Below are positions 3,023 through 30,825 of a DNA stretch of 32,000 nt, in pieces. This DNA comes from Nocardiopsis yanglingensis (GTDB taxonomy: Bacteria > Pseudomonadota > Gammaproteobacteria > Xanthomonadales > Xanthomonadaceae). A model generated the notes under the pieces. It did not search any database. It was not told the DNA's origin and saw only the letters and a program-made list of their open reading frames with translations. The translations under genes and the position numbers were made by a program. The stretch's first letter is position 1. Every line of letters begins with the position of its first letter. The stretch lies in NCBI GenBank assembly GCA_045809185.1, contig JBJNRH010000003.1; one strand, 5' to 3'.

Positions 3023-3646
3023 ATGTACCCTGACGCCGCCAGCACTCTCCTCAACTTCGATACCGCACGCACCGTGTCCAGTTCCCAGCAGCCCAGCAGC
3101 GAGCCGACGAACTGGGCCGGTGACATGGATGGCGTGGCGCGGCTGCGCGACCGCGACTGTTTCATGCGGATCTACGACTACTTCATGCCGCGGCTGTGCG
3201 TGTACCTGCGCGGCCTGGGTGCAGCTGATGCCATGGCCGAAGAAGTGGCGCAGGAGTGCCTGTTGCGGCTGTGGCTTCGTGCCGCTGATTATGATCCTGC
3301 ACAGGGCGCGCTGAGCACCTGGCTGTATCGCATCGCCCGCAACCTGCATATCGATCGAGTGCGGCGTGAACGCAGCTGGATGCAGGTGCAGGCGGCGGTG
3401 GAGGATGCGGCAACACTGGATGTGATCGAGCGCAGCAGTGCCGAGCAGTTCGCCGATCAGGCGCGTCTGCGCCAGCGCATCAACGAGCTGCCTGCGGTGC
3501 AGGCGCGGCTGGTGCGGATGTCCTATTTCGAAGCCAAGAGCCACAGCGAAATCGCCGAGGCGCTGGGCATGCCTCTGGGGACGGTCAAATCACACCTGCG
3601 CCGAGCGTTCCTGCAACTGCAGGCGAAAGTGGGAGGTGCGCCATGA
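3023..3646 (+). CDS. ECF (sigma-70 family) RNA polymerase sigma factor, RpoE/ChrR-type
   Basis: Region 2 (YDYFMPRL...LYRIARNLHIDRVRRE) and region 4 HTH (SYFEAKSHSEIAEALGMPLGTVKSHLRRA). The stop overlaps the anti-sigma start (ATGA). Start is uncertain: ATG 3023 is preferred and ATG 3125 is possible. Confidence 0.85.
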   Translation: MYPDAASTLLNFDTARTVSSSQQPSSEPTNWAGDMDGVARLRDRDCFMRIYDYFMPRLCVYLRGLGAADAMAEEVAQECLLRLWLRAADYDPAQGALSTWLYRIARNLHIDRVRRERSWMQVQAAVEDAATLDVIERSSAEQFADQARLRQRINELPAVQARLVRMSYFEAKSHSEIAEALGMPLGTVKSHLRRAFLQLQAKVGGAP

Positions 3647-4317
3647 ACCCGCACCACCACCTGCACGAATCCACCCTGATGAGCTATGCCGCCGGGGCGC
3701 TGCCGGCGCCGTTGAGCATCGTGGCCGGTGCCCACCTGGAGCAGTGCCCGCATTGCCGTCAGCGCCTGCGCGACGCCGAAGCGATCGGTTCGGTGCTGCT
3801 GGAGCAGACCCAGCCGTCTGCAACCGACGCGCGCCGCGAGCAGTTGCGCGAGGCGATGCTGATGCGGCTGGCTGCAGAGGCGCCGACGGCCATCGCTGGG
3901 CTCGCACGTGCCGTGCCGAAGGAGCGGCCCGAGGCCAACCCGGACCATCTACCTGCCTCTCTGCATCCGTATTTCGGCAGCTCGCTCAGCGGCCTGCGCT
4001 GGCGTTGGATGGCGCCGGGGGTGCACTGCATCCGTGCCGAGCAGATGCCTTCGCTGATCATGCTGAAGATCGCCCCAGGCAAATGCCTGCCCATGCACAG
4101 CCATGGCCGCAGCGAGCTGACCCAGATTCTGCGTGGCTCGTACAACGATGCGCTGGGGTTGTTCGCACCGGGCGATGTTGCGGATCTGGATGAGGATGTA
4201 GAACATCAACCGGTAACCGCGCCGGGCGTGCCGTGCATCTGTGTATCAGCGTTGGATGCGCCGTTGGTGTTCAGCGGTTGGCTGGCGCGGAAGATCCAGC
4301 GGTTTGTGAAGCTCTAG
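3643..4317 (+). CDS. chrR: ChrR-family anti-sigma factor (zinc-binding N-domain plus C-terminal cupin)
   Basis: N-terminal HLEQCPHC (HxxxCxxC zinc motif) and a C-terminal cupin-like segment (HSHGRSELTQILRGSY). Translationally coupled to the ECF sigma. Confidence 0.8.
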   Translation: MNPHHHLHESTLMSYAAGALPAPLSIVAGAHLEQCPHCRQRLRDAEAIGSVLLEQTQPSATDARREQLREAMLMRLAAEAPTAIAGLARAVPKERPEANPDHLPASLHPYFGSSLSGLRWRWMAPGVHCIRAEQMPSLIMLKIAPGKCLPMHSHGRSELTQILRGSYNDALGLFAPGDVADLDEDVEHQPVTAPGVPCICVSALDAPLVFSGWLARKIQRFVKL

Positions 4318-4318
4318 G

Positions 4319-5020
4319 ATGAGTGCGGCGATGGCAACGGGCGCGCTACGGGTTCTGTTGACCGGTGCCGCGGGGCTGGTGGGGCAGGGTGTGGCCCTGG
4401 CCTGCCAGCGCTCGCCCCGGGTCGCCAATCTGACCGCGCTGGTCCGGCACCCGGGAAGCCTCAACGGCAGCGGCAGCGAACTGATCGTGCCTGACTTCCT
4501 CAGGATCGAGGAACGGCAGGATGTTCTGTCGGGGTTCGATGCCTGCTTCTACTGCGCGGGTGCTCCACCGGTGGGCACGGCCGAGGCCGAGTATCGACGG
4601 GTGACACTGGACACCACTTTGGCCGTCGCCCGCGCCTGGGCCACGGCGAACCCACAGGGGTGTTTCCTGTATGTATCCGGCGCGGGTGCGGATGCGCGAC
4701 GCCGGTTGATGCCGTTGCGGGTCAAGGGCGAAACCGAGCGGGCACTGCAGGCGCTGCCGGTCCGCACGGTCATGCTGCGTCCGGGTGGCGTGCGCCCCGT
4801 GCAAGGCACCGGCACCCGTCATGGCCTGCTGAAGCCGCTGTACTGGGGTGGCGCACCCTTGATGAAACTGGCGGGTGTGATCGCGCCGTCACTGGTGACC
4901 AGCAACCTGGCACTGGGCCAGGCGATGATTGCGCTGGCCGGCATGGAGCATTCGCCGGCGACGGTGGAGTGCGCGGACATCAACCGGATCGCGACGGACG
5001 TGCGCGATCCGGTTGCCTGA
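4319..5020 (+). CDS. NAD(P)-binding Rossmann-fold protein (atypical SDR / epimerase-like)
   Basis: N-terminal VLLTGAAGLVGQG glycine-rich motif. Starts 2 nt after the chrR stop. Confidence 0.65.
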   Translation: MSAAMATGALRVLLTGAAGLVGQGVALACQRSPRVANLTALVRHPGSLNGSGSELIVPDFLRIEERQDVLSGFDACFYCAGAPPVGTAEAEYRRVTLDTTLAVARAWATANPQGCFLYVSGAGADARRRLMPLRVKGETERALQALPVRTVMLRPGGVRPVQGTGTRHGLLKPLYWGGAPLMKLAGVIAPSLVTSNLALGQAMIALAGMEHSPATVECADINRIATDVRDPVA

Positions 5021-21364: not shown

Positions 21365-21473
21365 GCCTCTTGCTCGACCGCCTTCATCGGTGGATCTGGC
21401 GTTTGCCCGCGTGCAAGCCCGGTCATTGCTGCTGCCGCCGCACGTGCATTTGCATCATTCAGGAGCCGACCGA

Positions 21474-22451
21474 ATGAGCGGCGGAACCTGCAAATTCTGC
21501 GGGAACATCAGCGTCCACCTGTTCAAAGGCGGCCTCTGCTACGAGTGCAGCGAAAGCGACGTGCGCGTGCCTGTATCGGCGACGCCGGTTGATCGCCGCT
21601 CACCCGAGCTAGCTGCATTCGACGCGGCAAACGCACGCGCCTACGGCGCCCAGCGTCGTGCTGAGCTGTTCAATGAGAAGAACGCCGCGCACGGATTCTC
21701 GGCGGCGGCCGGAGGCCGTCGCCTTGGGCTTGTCCATTCTTCAACAAGTGACACGCGGCGCGTGTCACTCACTCTCGATCCGAATCACATTCGCGGACTG
21801 CGACTGAAGAAGTCGCTGATTACCGGAGCAAGGCTTCATGACCAAGAGGCGAAACAAGGCTCGTTCCGTGGCGCGTGGTACATGCTCACCACGACTTACC
21901 GAAACGGAAGTGACGCTGGCCCTCGTGACATTAGCGAGACACTTAAGCGCATCCGGGGCTTCTTCAATCGAGCTGTCCGATTGCGCTACCGGGGATACCG
22001 TCCGCGTTTCCGTTACCTCTGGTGCGGTGAACTCACTAAAGCCGGGGTTCCCCATTACCACGTCTTGATCTACATCCCTCGCGGGATTTTCTTGCCCAAG
22101 GCTGACAGGGCAGGGTGGTGGCCTCACGGCCATACCAAGATTGAAAAAGCCCGCAATGCAGTGGGCTATCTGGCGAAGTACGCCAGCAAATTTTCCCCCG
22201 ACATGCTCGCGTCGTTCCCGAAGGGATTTCGGACCCATGCCATCGGTGGACTCAACACGGAATCGAAGCGTGAACTGCGTTGGTGGAAAGCACCTAAGGC
22301 AGCACGCGATGCACTCGGCGTACTTGCCGACATCCGCAAAGCCCTGGGCGGCTACGTGGACAAAATCACCGGCGATTTCTGGCCCTCGCCGTGGAAAGTG
22401 ATCACCGACAGGGGCCGGATCATCGTATGGAAATTGGAGATACCCGCATGA
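21474..22451 (+). CDS. rolling-circle replication initiator (HUH, gene II-like) with an N-terminal zinc ribbon
   Basis: AGGAG RBS 8 nt before ATG 21474. CKFCGN...CYEC ribbon, HUH motif PHYHVLIY and Tyr motif GYLAKYASK. Confidence 0.8.
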   Translation: MSGGTCKFCGNISVHLFKGGLCYECSESDVRVPVSATPVDRRSPELAAFDAANARAYGAQRRAELFNEKNAAHGFSAAAGGRRLGLVHSSTSDTRRVSLTLDPNHIRGLRLKKSLITGARLHDQEAKQGSFRGAWYMLTTTYRNGSDAGPRDISETLKRIRGFFNRAVRLRYRGYRPRFRYLWCGELTKAGVPHYHVLIYIPRGIFLPKADRAGWWPHGHTKIEKARNAVGYLAKYASKFSPDMLASFPKGFRTHAIGGLNTESKRELRWWKAPKAARDALGVLADIRKALGGYVDKITGDFWPSPWKVITDRGRIIVWKLEIPA

Positions 22452-22753: not shown

Positions 22754-22945
22754 ATGGCGCGGTACGTCTACGAATGCCTGCAATTCAATCAGCAGACCGG
22801 CACCTGTGAGCAGGCTGGATTCGTGCCGCGCACCGATATTCCCGCACTTACCACTGCCGAGGTGTCGGGAATCCTGTCCATGGTTGCGGTGTGTTTCGCC
22901 GTGGCATGGGCATACAAGCAAATAGGCAGAACCATCCGTAACTAG
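22754..22945 (+). CDS. small membrane protein preceding the coat gene (possible minor virion protein)
   Basis: 63 aa with a C-terminal TM (ILSMVAVCFAVAWAY). Positionally equivalent to 30873-31130 in prophage 2. Confidence 0.55.
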   Translation: MARYVYECLQFNQQTGTCEQAGFVPRTDIPALTTAEVSGILSMVAVCFAVAWAYKQIGRTIRN

Positions 22946-22960
22946 TGAAAGGGGAACACC

Positions 22961-23098
22961 ATGGAACTCGACGCAACCGCCGCATTGACTGTTCTGCAAG
23001 GACTGGCCGCTGTCCTGGGCACCATCGGCGCAGCAAAGCTCGCACCGGCCGCAATCTCGGTCGGCTTCAAGTGGATCAAGGGCGCGATCTTCGGTTGA
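22961..23098 (+). CDS. major coat protein (g8p-like, 45 aa, Pf3-type without signal peptide)
   Basis: MELDATAALTVLQGLAAVLGTIGAAKLAPAAISVGFKWIKGAIFG has an acidic N-terminus, a hydrophobic core and a basic C-terminus. RBS AAAGGGGA. Below the ORF-track cutoff. Confidence 0.75.
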   Translation: MELDATAALTVLQGLAAVLGTIGAAKLAPAAISVGFKWIKGAIFG

Positions 23099-23151: not shown

Positions 23152-23214
23152 ATGCTGGGTCTATTCGTTCTCTGCGCCGGCAGTGCCGCGCTTTACATCG
23201 CCTTTGGTGATTGA
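23152..23214 (+). CDS. 20-aa hydrophobic peptide (g7p/g9p-like candidate)
   Basis: MLGLFVLCAGSAALYIAFGD. GGGGGA upstream, and the stop overlaps the g3p-like start. Prophage 2 has a 27-aa equivalent at 30139-30222. Confidence 0.35.
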   Translation: MLGLFVLCAGSAALYIAFGD

Positions 23215-24155
23215 TGATGGGACTGTTCCTTCGCCTAGCGGTGTTCGCGTTGCTGATTGGCGTGTCCTCGCAGGCGCTCGCGGATGATCAGGGCGAGGCG
23301 TATGCAAAGTGTGTTCAGCAACTTGCGAAATTGACTGGTGAACGGATCGTTGACCGCCAGTGCGTGGTTGAGATTTATACCGGTGGCGCGTTTGGCGGCG
23401 CATATCGAGCGAAATACCGACTCAGGACTGATAGTGGTGGTGTTAGTTCACAGATTCAGAGCGGCCCGGACTTCAACTGGATTAAGGCATGCAGCGTCCG
23501 ACCGGAAGAGCTTGGTTGGGAGGGCGGCGCGACAGCGGCATCGGTGAACGCCTGTCACAAAGGCTGCATGTATTCCAGCTCGCTCGACCCGCTAGGGGTG
23601 GCGGGTTTTAGCTACACACCCACGGGTGGCATCTGTACGGAGTCCGATGCTCCAGCGCCAACGCCAGCAGGTGATGGCGGCGGGGATGATGGTGGTGGAA
23701 CTGGCGGTGAGACGGGTGGCGGGGATGGTGACGGCGGGGGCGACGGCGGGGGCGACGGTGATGGAGGTGGGGATGGTGGCGGCAACGGCGAGGGCGGTGG
23801 AAATGGAGATGGTGACGGTGATGGCGGCAGTGACGGCGGGGAAGATGGTGACGGTGATGGCGATGGCGATGGCGAGAATCCTAGCCTCCCCGAGAACCCT
23901 ACGTATCCCGGCGACGTGCCAATGCCCTACATGGACCCACCGATTCCGAGTAGCTACTTAGGGCAATGGTCTAGTGGTCTTGGTGGTGGTTCCTGTCCCG
24001 CTGCGAAGGTCATCACTGTTGGCGTTGGACCTGTCTCTACTACCGTCAGTTTTGAGTTCAAACCGCTCTGCGATTTCGCGCTGATGATCAAGGGCTTGGT
24101 CATCGCCTGCGCCGCGATCGCAGCTGTATATATCGTTTCTGGAGTGCGCAAATAA
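23214..24155 (+). CDS. minor coat / host-attachment protein (g3p-like) with a Gly/Asp-rich linker
   Basis: Signal peptide ...SSQALA|DDQGEAY, a Cys-containing N-domain, a GDGGG-type linker and a C-terminal membrane anchor (LVIACAAIAAVYIV). Confidence 0.75.
   Translation: MMGLFLRLAVFALLIGVSSQALADDQGEAYAKCVQQLAKLTGERIVDRQCVVEIYTGGAFGGAYRAKYRLRTDSGGVSSQIQSGPDFNWIKACSVRPEELGWEGGATAASVNACHKGCMYSSSLDPLGVAGFSYTPTGGICTESDAPAPTPAGDGGGDDGGGTGGETGGGDGDGGGDGGGDGDGGGDGGGNGEGGGNGDGDGDGGSDGGEDGDGDGDGDGENPSLPENPTYPGDVPMPYMDPPIPSSYLGQWSSGLGGGSCPAAKVITVGVGPVSTTVSFEFKPLCDFALMIKGLVIACAAIAAVYIVSGVRK
23671..23876 (+). repeat. degenerate GGTGAYGGYGGNGGN coding repeats (Gly/Asp linker of g3p-like protein)
   Basis: Encodes GDGGGDDGGGTGGETGGGDGDGGGDGGGDGDGGGDGGGNGEGGGNGDGDGDGGSDGGEDGDGDGDGDGE. 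Confidence 0.8.
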
Positions 24156-24439
24156 TGCCGTGGTTAGCAGCCTTCCTTGTCCAGCTTCTGGGCAACTCTC
24201 TCGCCCGTGTTCTCACTGGCGCTGGCCTCGGTCTCGCAACAGGCGCAGCCCTGTTGCCGCTTGTGAAGGGCGCACTGAACCTCATCACCCAGAAGTGGTC
24301 AGGCATCGCGGCCGATCTCGCCAATGTGATGCTCATGGCCGGGGCAGGGGAGGCCATCACCATGATCGGTTCCGCAATCGTGACCAAGGTTGTCATTGAT
24401 GCGGGCAAGGTCGCCGTACAGAAGGCAGCTTCCAAATGA
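24155..24439 (+). CDS. g6p-like minor coat membrane protein
   Basis: 94 aa and hydrophobic. TAATG overlap with the g3p-like gene and ATGA overlap with zot. Confidence 0.6.
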   Translation: MPWLAAFLVQLLGNSLARVLTGAGLGLATGAALLPLVKGALNLITQKWSGIAADLANVMLMAGAGEAITMIGSAIVTKVVIDAGKVAVQKAASK

Positions 24440-25650
24440 TGTATCTAATCTCGGGGCAACCCGGCAATGGCAAGACCTTGCGCGCGATGTCGATGGCGCT
24501 TGAGTTCTACGAGCAGAACCAGCAGCAGGTAAAGGAAGGCAAGGCGCAGCCGCGCCGATTCTTTACCAACATCGCGGGCGCCACAGTAGAGGAGGGCGCA
24601 GACGCTTTCCCGTGGATGGAGAAGCTGCCCGAACACAACGACTGGACACAGCTTCCGGACGGCTCTTTCGTGATCTACGACGAAGCGCATTCCGATGGCA
24701 ACACTCAGGGGCTGGAGCGTTACGGCAAGCTGTTCCCGTCGACCGGAAAGCCAGGTGAATCCGATGATCCTCGCATCCGCGCTATGTCGACACATCGGCA
24801 TCGCGGTTTCGATCTTGTGTTCGTCACGCAATGGCCGAACAAGATTCACCATCAGGTGCGCACTCTCATCGGTTCGCACACGCACATGAATCGTTCGTTC
24901 GGCATGCAGCGGGCAGGCGTCCTTACGTGGTCGCGCGTCCAAAGTGACCCGTACGATGAGAAGGTGCGCGACAAGGCCGAAGAGGAAATCTGGGCTTACC
25001 CCAAAGCGCTGTATAGCCGCTATCGCAGTGCGACGCTGCACACGGCCAGCCACAAATTCAAGGTTCCTACGAAGGTCTGGCAGGCGCTGTCCGTCACCAT
25101 TGCGCTAGTCCTTGGTGTCTGGATGATCTACGCGTTCATCATCAAACCGCCATCGGCACCAAAGAAGGTGGATCAGGGGGCCGGTGCTTTGCCGGCGGCT
25201 GGAGCCCTGGCGCCCTTGGGCGCGGGCGTGCCGGCGGCACGGCCCCTCAACCGTGAGGAGTACATCGAACGTCACAAGCCGCGGATTGAGTTTCAGCCGT
25301 GGTCGGCACCCGCCTTTGATGATCGCAGCGTTCAATCGCAGCCTGAGTTGTATTGCATGGCATCTGGCACCACCGAGCAGGACACAACGTGCACGTGCGT
25401 AACAGAGCAGGGCACTAAGGCCAAGATTTCAATCCCGGTATGTGTGGCGATCGCACGCGATGGCCCGGCTTACAATCCCTACCGCGCTCCCCGTCAGCAG
25501 TCCGAACCCGTTCGGGAAGAAGAATCCCGGAGTATTGCGAAGGCCGCTTCAACGGATTCGCCAGAGGCGGCCGCGCACGCGCTGATTGAGGTTGGCAAGC
25601 GTCCTATGGGCACATTCCCAGAGACGCCACCGTACCCGGCAAGCTTCTAA
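24436..25650 (+). CDS. zot: Zot / g1p-like assembly ATPase
   Basis: Walker A GQPGNGKT, Walker B VIYDEAH, a central TM (ALSVTIALVLGVWMIYAFI) and a periplasmic C-terminal domain. Confidence 0.85.
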   Translation: MMYLISGQPGNGKTLRAMSMALEFYEQNQQQVKEGKAQPRRFFTNIAGATVEEGADAFPWMEKLPEHNDWTQLPDGSFVIYDEAHSDGNTQGLERYGKLFPSTGKPGESDDPRIRAMSTHRHRGFDLVFVTQWPNKIHHQVRTLIGSHTHMNRSFGMQRAGVLTWSRVQSDPYDEKVRDKAEEEIWAYPKALYSRYRSATLHTASHKFKVPTKVWQALSVTIALVLGVWMIYAFIIKPPSAPKKVDQGAGALPAAGALAPLGAGVPAARPLNREEYIERHKPRIEFQPWSAPAFDDRSVQSQPELYCMASGTTEQDTTCTCVTEQGTKAKISIPVCVAIARDGPAYNPYRAPRQQSEPVREEESRSIAKAASTDSPEAAAHALIEVGKRPMGTFPETPPYPASF

Positions 25651-26437: not shown

Positions 26438-26465
26438 TCTGAACATAATATACATTATGCGAAAT
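26438..26465 (-). other. dif: intact XerCD dif site (XerC arm - 6-bp spacer - XerD arm)
   Basis: The bottom strand reads ATTTCGCATAA-TGTATA-TTATGTTCAGA; E. coli dif is GGTGCGCATAA-TGTATA-TTATGTTAAAT. GGGNAGGG polarity switches here. Confidence 0.85.
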
Positions 26466-27442: not shown

Positions 27443-28735
27443 TCAGAAGCTCGCCGGATAAGGCGGCGTCTCTGGGAACGTACCCAACGGGCGCTTCCCA
27501 ACTGCAATTAGAGTGCTCCCGTTCGCCGCGGCGGTGGTCGGCTGTGTCTCGCTCGCGCTCGTCACAGGCGACCCCGCCGCAGCCTTTATGCGCGCGGTCG
27601 TAGCATCGGACTGCTCGCCAAACGGGTCTACGGGCCAAGTCGTGGCAATGATCTCGTGCCCCTTAGCGCTCAGCAGCACGCCAAATTCGGTGCGTTTAAC
27701 CGACCACCCCAGCGCCCACAACTGCTCAGTGGTGAATCGATCAAGCACCTGACCGCCGCCCGTAGCCCGAAACTCCACAATGTCGCGCTGCCCATACCAG
27801 CCGGCATGCCGCGCCCTGGCATTGGCCGTCATGTCCAGCACGTACTGCACGCCTGCTGGAAGGCGCTCCTTCTCCTTCGCAGGCTCAGCCACCTTTGTCA
27901 CCACTGTTGCAGGCTGAGAGCCGGGGGCGTGGGCAATGGCCGGAATCGCGGCCTTCTGCGAAGCAACAACGCCTTTAATCTTGTCTGTACCGCCCGTGGT
28001 GCCATCTGCGATAAAGAACCGCCCCAGCATTACGACGCCGACAATCAGCGCGAGCGCCATAAGGATTGCCGGACCGCGCAGGGTCTTCCACAGGGTGCGC
28101 GTGTTCCCCTTGTAGACCTCATTGGATTCAATGCCCGGCTGCACGCCGTGGTAGAGCTCCCAGATGGCCGGGTCGTACTTGCGGACCTCTGTGCCCACCG
28201 TTTCATATTTGCCGGTGCCAGTGGCCGCATAGAACCGCACCGAATATCGCTGATCGGACCCCAGCGCGTCGAGCTTGGTATACGTGTTCTTCTTCGCCAT
28301 GCGGCGGATGATCAGGCGATGCAGGTCTTTGCAGTCCTGCGAGATGATCACCATGTCCAAGCTGATATGGCCGTGCTTGGCGAAGAAGTTTGCAGCGCGC
28401 TCAGGCAGATTGGCGCGATTGGTCGGCCAGTACTCGTGCGCCTCATCGATCACGATCAGTGCGTGCTTCTCGATGTGTGGGAACGAAATGGCGCCATCGT
28501 TGTCGGTGTCGCATACGCACCAATCAACCACTTCCTTGTCGCCCATCACATGCACCAGCTCGCGCACCTCTTCTTCAGGCATGCCCAGGTGGGCAGCGAT
28601 CTTATCGAGGCTCTCCCCTACCCCGTTTAGACGCACGTAGACATGTCGCTTCGCCCGCAATGCAGGAAGGATGTGATGCAGAACCGCCTCGTAGCTCTTG
28701 CCGCTGCGCGGCAAGCCTTCATGGCCGAAGATCAT
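27443..28735 (-). CDS. zot: Zot / g1p-like assembly ATPase
   Basis: ATG 28735. Walker A GLPRSGKS, Walker B VIDEAH and a TM (ILMALALIVGVVMLGRFFI). C-terminal GKRPLGTFPETPPYPASF is nearly identical to the prophage-1 Zot tail. Confidence 0.85.
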   Translation of the reverse strand: MIFGHEGLPRSGKSYEAVLHHILPALRAKRHVYVRLNGVGESLDKIAAHLGMPEEEVRELVHVMGDKEVVDWCVCDTDNDGAISFPHIEKHALIVIDEAHEYWPTNRANLPERAANFFAKHGHISLDMVIISQDCKDLHRLIIRRMAKKNTYTKLDALGSDQRYSVRFYAATGTGKYETVGTEVRKYDPAIWELYHGVQPGIESNEVYKGNTRTLWKTLRGPAILMALALIVGVVMLGRFFIADGTTGGTDKIKGVVASQKAAIPAIAHAPGSQPATVVTKVAEPAKEKERLPAGVQYVLDMTANARARHAGWYGQRDIVEFRATGGGQVLDRFTTEQLWALGWSVKRTEFGVLLSAKGHEIIATTWPVDPFGEQSDATTARIKAAAGSPVTSASETQPTTAAANGSTLIAVGKRPLGTFPETPPYPASF

Positions 28736-28739
28736 TTCG

Positions 28740-29138
28740 TTACGTCCACTGGAAGAGAGTGAGGAACACCCGCACAAGGCGGAATACAAGTGCAGCCGTC
28801 AGTACCGCGATAGCCTCACCGACGCGCAACTGGGCAACGATGAACGCGGTCCACGGCCCCGCAGCGTTGAGCATTGCGCAGAAGCTGATCTGCGACAGGA
28901 AATCAGGCGCTGGAATCAGATACACGATGGCCTTGACGAACGACAACACCAGCTCGATGAAGTCGGTCTGTAGATCCGTCATGAAATCGGAGAAATCCGC
29001 CCACAACGACGTGATCTGCTCCTTTGCCCACGTGGTGAGGGCGGTGACCGGCCCTACCCCATCGGCATATGCCCACGACGCTGACAGCACGAGCACAAGC
29101 AGCGCCGCAGCCAGCACGATCAGATGATTACGCTTCAT
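28740..29138 (-). CDS. g6p-position minor coat/membrane protein (unrelated in sequence to prophage-1 g6p-like)
   Basis: ATG 29138 with an ATGA overlap on the g3p-like stop. 132 aa with several hydrophobic helices. Confidence 0.55.
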   Translation of the reverse strand: MKRNHLIVLAAALLVLVLSASWAYADGVGPVTALTTWAKEQITSLWADFSDFMTDLQTDFIELVLSFVKAIVYLIPAPDFLSQISFCAMLNAAGPWTAFIVAQLRVGEAIAVLTAALVFRLVRVFLTLFQWT

Positions 29139-30142
29139 AGCAGTGCCCACCTCAGCGCAACGATGCCCATGCCCGCAAGGAAGACGAATCCGGCGTACTG
29201 AAATAGCTGTAGCAGTGGGCCGGAGCACAGCGAGGCCAGGTCAAACTTGCCCGCGTACTGTCCACCGTCCCACGTTGCGGTCGGACAACTGCCACCGCCG
29301 GTACAGCTGCCAAAGAAGCCTTTGACCTTCGACAAGATCGGGGCCCCTTCAATGGCCGTCTTGAACTCCGCTATCACCTTTTGAACCGTCTTGCCCGACT
29401 TCTTGTAAAGACGCCCGGTCGTTGGGCCTGTTCCGCCGCCGTCACCTCCCTCACCTGGCCCCGGGCCAGTACCGCCACCGTCACCCGGGCCGGTACCACC
29501 ACCGTCACCGTCACCGTCCCCCGGCCCCGTGCCGCCGCCATCGCCGCCGCCCGGGCCAGTACCTCCACCATCGCCGCCGCCCGGGCCTGTGCCGCCATCG
29601 CCACCGCCACCATCGCCGCCACCATCGCCGCCACCGTCGCCCGGACCGGTGCCGCCGCCATCGCCGCCTCCTTCGCCGGGATCGGGATTGGTTGGCTCCG
29701 GGTGGTCGTTCGTGCTGCACGCCTCACCGGTAGGCGTAAATAGACGCCCCGTTGGGGACTGCGCATAAAGCGAACCCCCATACGTGCAGCCGTTACTGCA
29801 AACACTGCCTAGGCCGTTGTCGCCACCACCCTTCCAGCCAAGTTCCTCCGGTCGGGCGCTGCATGCTTTGATCCAGTTGAAGTCCGGACCGCTCTGAATT
29901 TGTCCACTGACACCGCCACTGTCAGTCCTAAGCCGGTACATGGCTCGATAGGCGCCACCAAACACACCAGTGGTATAGATCTGGTTCACACACTGGCGAT
30001 CAACAATTTTTTCCCCCGTCGTCTTGGAAAGCTGATTAAGGCACTTGGCGTATGCCTCGCCCTGATCATCCGCGAACGCCACGAAAGGCATCAGCCCGAA
30101 GGCAAGAAGTACAGCGAGCACTGCACATCGGGCGGGCGTCAC
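29135..30142 (-). CDS. minor coat / host-attachment protein (g3p-like) with a GGGDGGGTGP repeat linker
   Basis: GTG 30142. Signal peptide ...FVAFA|DDQGEAY. The N-domain is about 70% identical to the prophage-1 g3p-like protein; the C-domain is different. Confidence 0.75.
   Translation of the reverse strand: MTPARCAVLAVLLAFGLMPFVAFADDQGEAYAKCLNQLSKTTGEKIVDRQCVNQIYTTGVFGGAYRAMYRLRTDSGGVSGQIQSGPDFNWIKACSARPEELGWKGGGDNGLGSVCSNGCTYGGSLYAQSPTGRLFTPTGEACSTNDHPEPTNPDPGEGGGDGGGTGPGDGGGDGGGDGGGGDGGTGPGGGDGGGTGPGGGDGGGTGPGDGDGDGGGTGPGDGGGTGPGPGEGGDGGGTGPTTGRLYKKSGKTVQKVIAEFKTAIEGAPILSKVKGFFGSCTGGGSCPTATWDGGQYAGKFDLASLCSGPLLQLFQYAGFVFLAGMGIVALRWALL
29428..29682 (-). repeat. approximately 30-nt coding repeats (GGGDGGGTGP units) in the g3p-like linker
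   Basis: Repeated CCGGGCCNGTNCCNCCNCCATCGCCGCCGC units on the + strand. Confidence 0.8.
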
Positions 30143-30224: not shown

Positions 30225-30494
30225 TCAATCCTCCCTTTCTGATTGGCCGCAGAAGACGCATTCGCCGCCATCGAACTCGTGCCCCACTTCATCGCAAACG
30301 GCTTCATCTACCTCGCCCGCCTGATCGTCCGCGTGTTCGTCGGCGTCAAGCTCTTCCCGATCTTCGAAGAAGCCTGCGATCTTTTCGACGCACCAGCGCC
30401 CGAAAAGAGGAAGGGCCAATAGCGTGCCGGCACCCACAATCGCGGCCAGTGCTTGTGCAACTGAAAGCCCGAGAAATACCCCACTGAAGTCCAT
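30225..30494 (-). CDS. coat-protein paralog with an acidic, Cys-containing C-terminal extension
   Basis: ATG 30494 with a GGGGGA SD. Residues 1-44 align with the prophage-2 coat (about 45% identity: MDF..GL.V..A..AI.GAG.L.A.P.F.RW...K.A.FF). They are followed by EDREELDADEHADDQAGEVDEAVCDEVGHEFDGGECVFCGQSERED. Confidence 0.6.
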   Translation of the reverse strand: MDFSGVFLGLSVAQALAAIVGAGTLLALPLFGRWCVEKIAGFFEDREELDADEHADDQAGEVDEAVCDEVGHEFDGGECVFCGQSERED

Positions 30495-30502
30495 CGTTCC
30501 CC

Positions 30503-30640
30503 CTAGTAGTCGATGACCACCCGGCATTCCGTGCACCACAGATTGCCGTCATCCAGAACGATCACGTCATCGCCGCCGCACTCGGGGCACCAGTCGTCCT
30601 GGCACTCATCGACATTGACGTCATCAAGCTGGGGCTGCAT
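30503..30640 (-). CDS. 45-aa acidic zinc-ribbon miniprotein
   Basis: MQPQLDDVNVDECQDDWCPECGGDDVIVLDDGNLWCTECRVVIDY (CPEC-x15-CTEC). Below the ORF-track cutoff. Immediately upstream of the coat paralog. Confidence 0.5.
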   Translation of the reverse strand: MQPQLDDVNVDECQDDWCPECGGDDVIVLDDGNLWCTECRVVIDY

Positions 30641-30690
30641 AGGAATCGGGGCCGGTTTCCCAGCCCCTACCCGGCGCGACTCTTCCGCTA

Positions 30691-30825
30691 TCAGCGGAAG
30701 AAGTTCGCGACCTTGTTGGTGGCCCAGCGGGCGAAGCCCGGCGAGGCCTTCAGTGCGCCCGCACCGATGATGGCGCTCACGGCGCTGGTGACTGCGAGGC
30801 CGGTCAGGATGCTGTCGAAATCCAT
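30691..30825 (-). CDS. major coat protein (g8p-like, 44 aa)
   Basis: ATG 30825 with an AAGGAG SD. MDFDSILTGLAVTSAVSAIIGAGALKASPGFARWATNKVANFFR. Confidence 0.75.
   Translation of the reverse strand: MDFDSILTGLAVTSAVSAIIGAGALKASPGFARWATNKVANFFR

Follow-up and report, generated by a model that had tools for sequence, protein, structure and literature searches.

A duplicated inovirus coat gene with a polyanionic tail, paired with a putative zinc-ribbon miniprotein: a possible filament-capping subunit

The DNA analysed here is a 32,000-nucleotide stretch of contig JBJNRH010000003.1 (assembly GCA_045809185.1, listed as Nocardiopsis yanglingensis and placed among the Xanthomonadaceae by GTDB), referred to as the window in the following. 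Its last third consists of two filamentous (inovirus) prophages arranged tail to tail. Prophage 2 lies on the minus strand and extends past the end of the window; it is a filamentous prophage of Stenotrophomonas and shares 86.5% nucleotide identity with Stenotrophomonas phage SMA7 over 94% of the query. Downstream of its major coat gene it carries two open reading frames (ORFs), ORF45 and ORF89, that form the subject of this report. We show that ORF89 is functional and stems from a duplication of the leaderless major coat gene. The encoded protein keeps the coat helix and carries a long polyanionic tail in place of the basic coat end, and it is accompanied by a small, soluble and likewise acidic protein with a predicted zinc ribbon. 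The pair most likely influences the assembly of the filament, and it is conceivable that ORF89 serves as a capping or chain-terminating subunit of the phage filament.

The relationship between ORF89 and the neighbouring coat protein is well supported. The two align without gaps, with 22 of 44 residues identical (50%) and a BLASTP E value of 1e-15. Their local alignment score of 120 compares with 21.7 +/- 4.4 for shuffled coat sequences, and 0 of 20000 shuffles reached it. Both proteins exceed the cut-off of 27 bits for the Pfam profile PF25631 (Inovirus_capsid), ORF89 covering profile positions 1-41 of 41. A first-pass annotation, made from the sequence alone, had proposed that ORF89 is a coat paralog of about 45% identity and had considered that the likeness might merely reflect generic transmembrane composition. 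The paralogy is confirmed, at a slightly higher identity, and because the shuffles never reached the observed score and the PF25631 threshold was passed, an explanation by transmembrane composition is excluded, the BLASTP score pointing in the same direction. Coordinates and strand of the coat gene, ORF45 and ORF89 (Table 1) were correct in that annotation, as was the statement that the pair has no counterpart in prophage 1.

Which parts of the coat have been kept and which have been lost became apparent when 20 coats were compared position by position with 26 paralogs from the wider family described below. The paralogs keep D2, G9, L10, A18, A22, G23, A27, F31, W34, V39, F42 and F43 of the coats, and among the 15 coat positions of highest conservation, 11 still reach 80% or more in the paralogs. 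Basic residues follow another course. At position 26, 65% of the coats and 0% of the paralogs are basic, and the corresponding values are 75% and 0% for position 44, 35% and 8% for position 37 and 100% and 62% for position 38. At positions 37 and 44, half of the paralogs (50% in each case) carry Asp or Glu. ORF89 itself keeps two of the four basic residues of its parent (K26, R33, K38, R44) and in this respect falls outside the class of DNA-coating coats, in which three to four basic residues of the C-terminal third line the lumen and neutralise the DNA. In addition, the family has gained tails of about 45 residues with net charges of -10 to -20. As judged from these alignments, the paralogs retain the residues that would pack one coat subunit against the next and lose the basic residues that would face the DNA. 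Evolution is faster in the N domains of the paralogs than in the coats, with a mean identity of 56% versus 75%, and each N domain is slightly nearer to the coat of its own phage than to the others (permutation p ~0.002). The latter effect is due mostly to locus L013, where the coat is divergent (GLSTTTAV...) and the paralog diverges in the same way (GLSTSTAV...).

The coat ends with an Arg past residue 43, whereas ORF89 runs on for 46 residues, 43% of which are Asp or Glu. A tail of this kind had been recognized before, and its acidic, Cys-containing nature holds; the length of 45 residues, the share of about 50% Asp/Glu and the spacer of 12 residues between the first two cysteines given at the time do not, the last of these reading C67-x11-C79-x2-C82. 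Within the Stenotrophomonas group, residues C67, H72, C79 and C82 do not vary, and the tail aligns with a CxxC...CxxC ribbon found in the wider family. The Stenotrophomonas tail appears to be a derived version with a first knuckle of the type C-x4-H. A comparison of the miniprotein profile with the paralog-tail profile by hhalign yielded a probability of 88% (E value 2.8e-6). The ORF89 tail probably binds metal. Since the matching miniprotein has neither signal peptide nor membrane segment, the resemblance also argues for a cytoplasmic location of the tail ribbon and for the topology of the coat, i.e., N terminus out and C terminus in. In zinc-binding anti-sigma (ZAS) proteins, a membrane helix is likewise attached to a domain in the cytoplasm, which has the motif H-x3-C-x2-C. 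We rejected this assignment in view of the spacing in ORF89 (H72-x6-C79-x2-C82), the reversed domain order and the lack of any Pfam anti-sigma match.

ORF45 contains 10 Asp and 3 Glu, i.e., 13 acidic residues. The first-pass annotation had the length, the two Cys pairs and the number of Glu residues right; 12 Asp and a spacer of 15 residues between the pairs have to be corrected to 10 and 14. C18, C21, C36 and C39 are invariant in 11 sequences that originate from different phages and represent three subtypes. The best Pfam match, PF08271 (Zn_Ribbon_TF), remains below its cut-off with 25.0 versus 29 bits, and a search of the PDB sequences with the miniprotein profile yielded only marginal zinc-finger matches (best E value 0.066). 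The ORF45 stop codon overlaps the Shine-Dalgarno sequence of ORF89, and all genes from ORF45 to g3 are tightly packed in a way that suggests translational coupling.

Structures were predicted for both proteins. For ORF89, AlphaFold2 supplied with the family alignment predicts a helix from residue 12 to 44 (predicted local distance difference test, pLDDT, 88-92), a disordered acidic linker (49-66) and a small beta element at the Cys/His cluster (~80). ORF45 is predicted as a three-stranded ribbon with pLDDT values of 82-89 over residues 21-45. Its best PDB neighbours in Foldseek are zinc ribbons, with a probability of 0.9 and a root-mean-square deviation of 0.7-1.9 A over 26-31 residues, at an E value of ~0.4 that is owed to the very short domain. 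Thus, the profile and structure searches proposed at the outset led to a family for ORF89 via PF25631 and to ribbon neighbours at that E value for ORF45; for ORF89 as a whole no matching fold emerged.

Several observations indicate that both genes are real. Ratios of nonsynonymous to synonymous substitutions (dN/dS) were determined by comparing the window, SMA7 and a third prophage from S. maltophilia (L003). They amount to 0.05-0.13 for ORF45, 0.04-0.05 for the ORF89 N domain and 0.07-0.18 for the ORF89 tail, with dS estimates of ~0.8-2 that imply near saturation of synonymous sites in some pairs. The N domain of ORF89 is under tighter constraint than its tail. Taken together, the ratios point at ORF45 and ORF89 as real genes under purifying selection. 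The GC content at third codon positions (GC3) is 0.60 for ORF89, 0.80 for ORF45, 0.89 for the coat gene, 0.61 for ORF27 and 0.64 for g3. The earlier remark that GC3 of the pair is lower than that of its neighbours is therefore correct for ORF89 compared with the coat gene, but not for the pair as a whole, given the value for ORF45 and those for ORF27 and g3. Foreign origin as a cause of low GC3 was considered and discarded, because ORF27 and g3 share the GC3 of ORF89. The pattern rather looks like one in which the coat gene is very high and minor genes are lower. Situated downstream of a conserved hairpin and with a GC3 of 0.60 versus 0.89, ORF89 lacks, as far as these indirect signs go, the mark of very high expression carried by the major coat gene, and for the same reasons it is presumably made at a low level relative to the coat. 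No promoter of its own was detected for ORF89.

Word-indexed searches revealed homologues only in the S. maltophilia group, always within the same prophage. An exhaustive profile search returned 37 representatives. About 25 of these (clusters at 50% identity) are proteins of 82-108 residues that share one architecture: a coat domain (MD[FY]S..AGLSV...ARWLT.KVA.FF) is followed by an acidic linker, C-x2-C-G, 8-20 further residues and C-x2-C. The resulting CxxC-x8-20-CxxC ribbon is present in most family members. Genomic context was available for about 15 distinct phages, with intact reading frames throughout. The sample comprises the window, SMA7, S. maltophilia chromosomes, metagenome-assembled genomes labelled Hyphomicrobiales and Cypionkella, and contigs from IMG/VR and metagenomes. 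A profile scan of genome contigs with a narrower family alignment confirmed one locus and a metagenome scan added four further ones, while a scan of viral contigs with a signal-peptide-bearing coat (P0034) gave nothing beyond five contigs already known. The survey for coat duplications with acidic tails suggested by the first-pass annotation has thus been carried out, and the pair is kept far beyond this genome, which settles the question of its conservation in related phages.

Wherever the paralog was found, the genes are arranged in the order ORF85-like gene, leaderless coat gene, GC hairpin, miniprotein gene (where present), paralog, 27-residue hydrophobic ORF, g3, g6 and Zot. Of the 13 distinct Cys-type phages open to examination, 12 encode the acidic zinc-ribbon miniprotein, which comes in three sequence subtypes, between coat and paralog; a further contig, L028, stops right past it. 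The replication protein that accompanies the module varies, being Rep_trans in most loci and REP_ORF2-G2P in L012, and the module therefore belongs to the structural block. Distant acid-tailed relatives passing PF25631 reach 60.7, 42.9 and 29.6 bits. In L031 (59-813) a coat with signal peptide is followed by two tandem coat paralogs of 48 and 116 residues, both of which have acidic ends devoid of Cys and pass PF25631. L019 (3670-4597) encodes a ...KVAGFFG transmembrane protein whose acidic tail, again free of Cys, spans ~110 residues; it scores below the PF25631 cut-off (17.1 bits). Judging from these sequences, the acidic tail on a coat helix is the common feature and the zinc ribbon a trait of a sub-family.

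The hairpin between the coat gene and ORF45 is a conserved element of this arrangement. The hairpin region (66 nucleotides) folds at -35.6 kcal/mol (z = -3.85). In prophage 2 the hairpin is followed by GAUUCCU and then the AUG. Prophage 1 has a hairpin at the same place, GGGGCCGG-GCAAU-CCGGCCCC, followed by UUUUCU. Reading the sequences 3' of the stems bears out the earlier statement that the prophage 2 hairpin, unlike the prophage 1 terminator, has no U-tract, and a terminator scan detected no site past the prophage 2 coat gene. A hairpin resides at the same position in every related phage, with compensatory changes in four stem pairs among nine sequences; equivalents of the window hairpin are located in L001, L003, L009, L015-L018, L027 and L028. 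A G-run (GGGGGA) is located directly 5' of the stem, and the miniprotein AUG follows 7-10 nucleotides 3' of it; in L009 the miniprotein starts with an ATG overlapping the coat stop codon (TAATG). A second hairpin (30682-30700 in the window) overlaps the coat stop codon. The conserved hairpin is likely an attenuator, a stabiliser of the mRNA end or a translational element. That it presents the G-rich, Shine-Dalgarno-like run near the ORF45 start was considered but is not borne out by RNAalifold, which pairs this run with a pyrimidine tract 3' of the stem. Along the module, dS between the window and SMA7 jumps from 0.08 in ORF85 to 0.59 in the coat gene, 1.1 in ORF45 and ~1.8 in ORF89, which suggests a recombination breakpoint near the coat gene.

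How do the two proteins compare with known systems? The closest relatives of ORF89 are the leaderless major coats of PF25631, which functionally resemble the 44-residue Pf3 coat. Residues 1-43 match the full-length profile, share the acidic N terminus, the GL and AG packing motifs and F31/W34/FF43, and the gene adjoins a true coat gene. It differs from these coats by its length (89 versus 44 residues), the loss of K26 and R44, the tail charge of -18 in place of a basic end and a position behind a hairpin combined with lower GC3, so that it is not expected to be an abundant protein. By domain ORF89 belongs to Inovirus_capsid, and by function it would lack the defining property of a DNA-coating coat. 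The Ff proteins pVII and pIX at the leading tip and pVI and the C-domain of pIII at the trailing tip are described as small coat-like inner-membrane helices that close the filament in few copies (PMC10175506), and ORF89 resembles them in kind. The C termini of pVII and pIX, however, are basic and touch the DNA hairpin (PMC10175506), while the ORF89 tail is polyanionic, and the ORF89/ORF45 pair is accessory. Searches of Pfam, PHROGs, PADLOC and NCBIfam related ORF89 to neither pVII/pIX nor any other minor-coat family. Integrative phages of Xanthomonas and Stenotrophomonas have been reported to be without recognisable pVII/pIX homologues (bioRxiv 10.1101/2023.12.30.573655), so that they may possess other end proteins.

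PfsE of Pseudomonas phage Pf4 is, to our knowledge, free of any coat domain, acidic tail or zinc site. Like ORF89 it is a small inner-membrane protein encoded in an inovirus structural cluster, but its role is a non-structural one, superinfection exclusion, and it acts on the type IV pilus protein PilC (PMC8764522). ORF45 has two CxxC knuckles and a predicted three-stranded ribbon that superposes, at the E value given above, on small zinc ribbons such as those of TFIIB (N-terminal), ribosomal proteins of the L37ae/L43e type, the zinc-binding domain of T7 primase and Cas12a2. It is set apart by its extreme acidity, known ribbons mostly binding nucleic acid or RNA polymerase. The dense negative charge of polyanionic phage DNA mimics, for example Ocr and ArdA, can occupy a DNA-binding surface. 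There is no relation in fold or sequence, and the charge of ORF89 resides on a predicted disordered tail tethered to a coat helix, so that the comparison is one of analogy only. No match to any of the 5027 PADLOC models was found for ORF89, ORF45, ORF27 or ORF85 at E values up to 0.1, NCBIfam gave none for ORF89 and ORF45, and in PHROGs the two proteins are the function-unknown families 29356 and 31963. In the SMA7 record both are listed as 'hypothetical protein' with the note 'putative capsid protein'. The first-pass annotation knew of no described function of this kind; our literature search likewise turned up no paper on a coat paralog whose tail is acidic or contains a zinc ribbon, and the GenBank notes for SMA7 give no function. 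The genes as such are therefore on record, and what appears to be new is the architecture of the coat-family protein, its wider family and its conserved partner.

In the reading we favour, with a probability of roughly 0.35, ORF89 is a low-copy subunit that packs with the coat, offers its polyanionic tail in place of DNA and thereby caps or terminates the filament. Like the coat, ORF89 would insert into the inner membrane with its N terminus out and its tail in the cytoplasm, and, made in low amounts, it would pack alongside coat subunits at the assembly site. There the tail would occupy the place of the DNA against the basic inner face of the coat. A subunit of this kind could join the lattice where DNA is absent; it could not carry DNA packaging forward and would repel DNA, which would make it a cap or chain terminator at one end of the filament. 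From the order of the genes and the coupling of translation with ORF27 and g3, the trailing end, i.e., that of g3 and g6, is the better candidate. ORF45 would act as a cytoplasmic partner that shields the tail or competes with it. Cryo-electron microscopy of f1 has shown that the N termini of pVIII point toward the leading and the C termini toward the trailing tip, that the lumen is ~20 A wide and strongly positive due to four Lys per subunit and that both tips are built of small coat-like helices (PMC10175506). By rough arithmetic, five ORF89 tails with ~90 negative charges would match the positive charge of ~20 coat subunits. The earlier idea that ORF89 might 'cap or poison filament assembly' is compatible with the conserved putative packing residues and the lost positive charge. 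A constructive cap and a poison are the same mechanism with different consequences, and for the phage the result may be a sealed virion end, a regulated number or length of filaments, or a curb on production.

A number of points speak against the capping subunit. The pair is accessory, not universal: it is missing from prophage 1 and phiSHP2, and L030 (2727-3260) combines a PF25631 coat with an ORF27-like gene in the presence of neither paralog nor miniprotein. L013 has the paralog without the miniprotein, with a gap of only 49 nucleotides between coat and paralog. Because the coats share 75% identity among themselves, the test for co-variation of each paralog with its own coat gives a weak, modestly positive signal. 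A Foldseek search of the PDB with the whole ORF89 model returned only weak zinc-knuckle pieces, all at E values above 1. Incorporation of ORF89 into the virion is pure inference, and location in a structural cluster does not prove a structural role, as illustrated by the superinfection-exclusion factor PfsE in Pf4 (PMC8764522). Room for five tails with folded zinc knuckles would be needed within or beyond a lumen of ~2 nm, and where Ff tip proteins contact DNA their C termini are basic, opposite in charge to the ORF89 tail (PMC10175506).

As an alternative, ORF89 might be a membrane-tethered adaptor or decoy that works at the assembly site and never enters the virion, its coat-like helix sitting among coat subunits or beside Zot; we regard this as unlikely. 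Its acidic tail and ribbon would, jointly with soluble ORF45, bind a basic partner. This could be the DNA-binding face of the g5 single-strand binding protein (which it might help to strip from DNA), the basic tails of coat proteins in the membrane pool (as a chaperone), Zot or a host factor, all of which remain candidates only. Such a role would agree with the fact that strongly acidic zinc ribbons are unlikely DNA binders and better fit protein binding or nucleic-acid mimicry; ORF45 even bears a weak resemblance to anti-TRAP, a zinc protein blocking an RNA-binding surface, albeit far below cut-off (Pfam E value 0.098). Soluble and tethered copies of a similar ribbon that are translationally coupled suggest a shared ligand, and the accessory distribution suits a helper better than an obligatory cap. 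A generic anchor, however, could do without the packing residues of the coat, yet constraint within the protein is highest in the N domain (dN/dS 0.04-0.05), and the acidic tails without any Cys in L019 and L031 imply that the function does not centre on the ribbon. The need for likeness to the own coat would be explained if ORF89 mediated superinfection exclusion or acted as a production brake, the coat mimic, in the membrane of a phage-carrying cell, either blocking disassembly or DNA entry of incoming phages with the same coat type or poisoning assembly of its own phage so that chronic production remains tolerable. We consider this rather unlikely, although accessory distribution fits here too and PfsE sets a precedent for an exclusion protein among inovirus structural genes (PMC8764522). 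Competition between the two resident prophages is probable, as the N-terminal domains of their g3 proteins are ~80% identical and point to a shared receptor. The proposal of the first-pass annotation that the co-resident phage is excluded by coat mimicry nevertheless fails, since the prophage 1 coat belongs to a different family (PF05356, Phage_Coat_B) and exhibits no significant similarity to ORF89, which places it out of reach. Nor is the module tied to co-residence, because it is present in phages of unrelated genomes and metagenomes. Furthermore, the gene resides in the morphogenesis operon behind the coat hairpin, and with no promoter of its own detected it should be made mainly during virion production; the 5027 PADLOC models included no known defence family that matches.

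Two further possibilities carry far less weight. It is very improbable that topology is inverted, with the membrane potential driving export of the acidic tail, which would then be exposed in the periplasm or on the particle, and with the cysteines forming disulfides and not a zinc site. In leaderless coat proteins the proton-motive force moves acidic residues outward, as in the case of Pf3 coat and YidC, and the C-terminal flank of the paralogs is indeed poor in positive charges. Just past the helix, however, R33 is kept in 73% and K38 in 62% of the paralogs, their N terminus keeps the acidic MD(F/Y)S start of the coats, and the tail ribbon resembles a miniprotein that is free of leader and transmembrane segments and hence cytoplasmic. 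Moreover, 45-57 highly charged residues are a long stretch for export by YidC alone. That the pair represents a decaying, meaningless duplicate or an artefact of ORF calling may be suspected from the small size of the genes, their missing functional annotation and the lack of NCBIfam and PADLOC matches. This is negligibly probable in the face of dN/dS values far below 1 combined with many synonymous changes, frames intact in ~15 distinct phages, four conserved metal ligands, Shine-Dalgarno sequences and translational coupling.

Table 1. Features of the two filamentous prophages in the window, with emphasis on the coat-paralog region of prophage 2
Feature	Position	Strand	Remarks
ORF89, residues 1-43, coat-derived membrane/lattice helix	30366..30494	-	PF25631 63.4 bits; Shine-Dalgarno sequence GGGGGAA overlaps ORF45 stop
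ORF89, residues 44-89 and stop, polyanionic tail	30225..30365	-	net charge -18; C67-x4-H72-x6-C79-x2-C82; knuckle 30249-30296
ORF45, 45-residue soluble acidic protein, putative zinc ribbon (CPEC-x14-CTEC)	30503..30640	-	four Cys invariant in 11 orthologues
Major coat gene, parent of the paralog	30691..30825	-	44 residues, no signal peptide; basic K26, R33, K38, R44; PF25631 68.8 bits; Shine-Dalgarno sequence AAGGAG upstream
GC-rich hairpin GGGGCUGG-GAAA-CCGGCCCC	30648..30667	-	between coat gene and ORF45; no U tract; ORF45 AUG 7 nucleotides downstream
ORF27 (MLVCMVFAFIGGLAGHAVALAFNEASQ), small hydrophobic protein of 27 residues	30139..30222	-	starts 2 nucleotides past ORF89 stop; own stop overlaps g3 start (GTGA)
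Morphogenesis genes of prophage 2	27443..30142	-	g3-like 30142-29135, g6-like 29138-28740, Zot/g1-like 28735-27443; matches to PHROG 10432 and 974; Pfam Zot recorded for the equivalent gene in related loci
Prophage 2 genes in order		-	Rep, ssb 31436-31134, ORF85 31130-30873, coat 30825-30691, ORF45 30640-30503, ORF89 30494-30225, ORF27 30222-30139, g3 30142-29135, g6, Zot
Prophage 1 genes in order		+	Rep 21390-22451, ssb, ORF63, coat 22961-23098, g3 23211-24155, g6, Zot 24436-25650

The surroundings of the pair deserve some further comments. The prophage 2 coat gene has dN/dS values of 0.12-0.15 and the highest GC3 of this prophage. ORF27 is kept at the same position in all related phages with a dN/dS of ~0.01; it has no family match in Pfam, PHROGs, PADLOC or NCBIfam and is possibly a minor protein of the pVII/pIX type. 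The genes just 5' of the coat genes, ORF85 in prophage 2 and ORF63 (22754-22945) in prophage 1, both encode small proteins that carry a pair of Cys in the N-terminal part and a membrane helix in the C-terminal part. ORF85 matches PHROG 969 only and is without a Pfam match, while its counterpart in L013 is recorded as PF17091 (Inovirus_G7P_1). In the RefSeq entry for SMA7 (NC_021569, L001), the true 44-residue coat gene (2774-2908) and the 27-residue ORF (3381-3461) are unannotated, and the 'ORF305' coding sequence (3561-4478) is in another reading frame than the g3-like ORF (3458-4495); it is the latter whose product matches g3 proteins of other phages.

Prophage 1, located on the plus strand, has the same gene order as phiSHP2. 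A perfect copy of the dif-like 15-mer TATACATTATGCGAA is present at 26449-26463 between the convergent prophages, amid genes for DUF3653-type regulators. The same 15-mer has been given as the dif site of Xanthomonas phage phiLf (bioRxiv 10.1101/2023.12.30.573655), suggesting that both prophages integrated at one dif site in an XerCD-type manner. The g3 gene of prophage 2 is a chimera of an N part resembling prophage 1 and a C part resembling SMA7. Residues ~23-107 of the encoded protein are ~80% identical to the g3 protein of prophage 1 (58% across 197 aligned residues), and the final 96 residues are 96% identical to SMA7 g3, the N-terminal part of which is unrelated. The two resident phages thus probably share a receptor-binding domain and compete for a receptor, and the sharing possibly arose by recombination between them. 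The Zot/g1 proteins of the two prophages are otherwise divergent and end in nearly the same 18 residues (GKRP[M/L]GTFPETPPYPASF). These may constitute a docking motif, for instance for a host secretin, an idea based on the fact that neither phage encodes pIV.

How filaments are started and finished in integrative phages of Xanthomonas, Stenotrophomonas, Vibrio and Ralstonia, which have neither pIV nor recognisable pVII/pIX, has been put forward as a question in its own right (bioRxiv 10.1101/2023.12.30.573655). A conserved coat-derived protein that keeps the putative lattice contacts and carries a polyanion instead of binding DNA is a concrete candidate, be it as a subunit that forms or terminates a filament end or as a natural assembly regulator. 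SMA7 is an isolated phage carrying the module, which makes it approachable by experiment. The architecture of Inovirus_capsid, acidic linker and zinc ribbon, now labelled only 'hypothetical' or 'capsid' by annotation pipelines, is a case of re-use of the inovirus coat fold by duplication and fusion, and a natural coat variant that tolerates a cytoplasmic extension of 45-60 residues could be of interest for phage-display engineering. Taking the argument one tentative step further, ORF89 and ORF45 might represent an unrecognised class of inovirus end protein, a coat subunit equipped with its own DNA surrogate that would polymerise where the genome ends or begins. As part of the initiation or termination machinery in phages without recognisable pVII/pIX, it would set the closure and the length of the filament.

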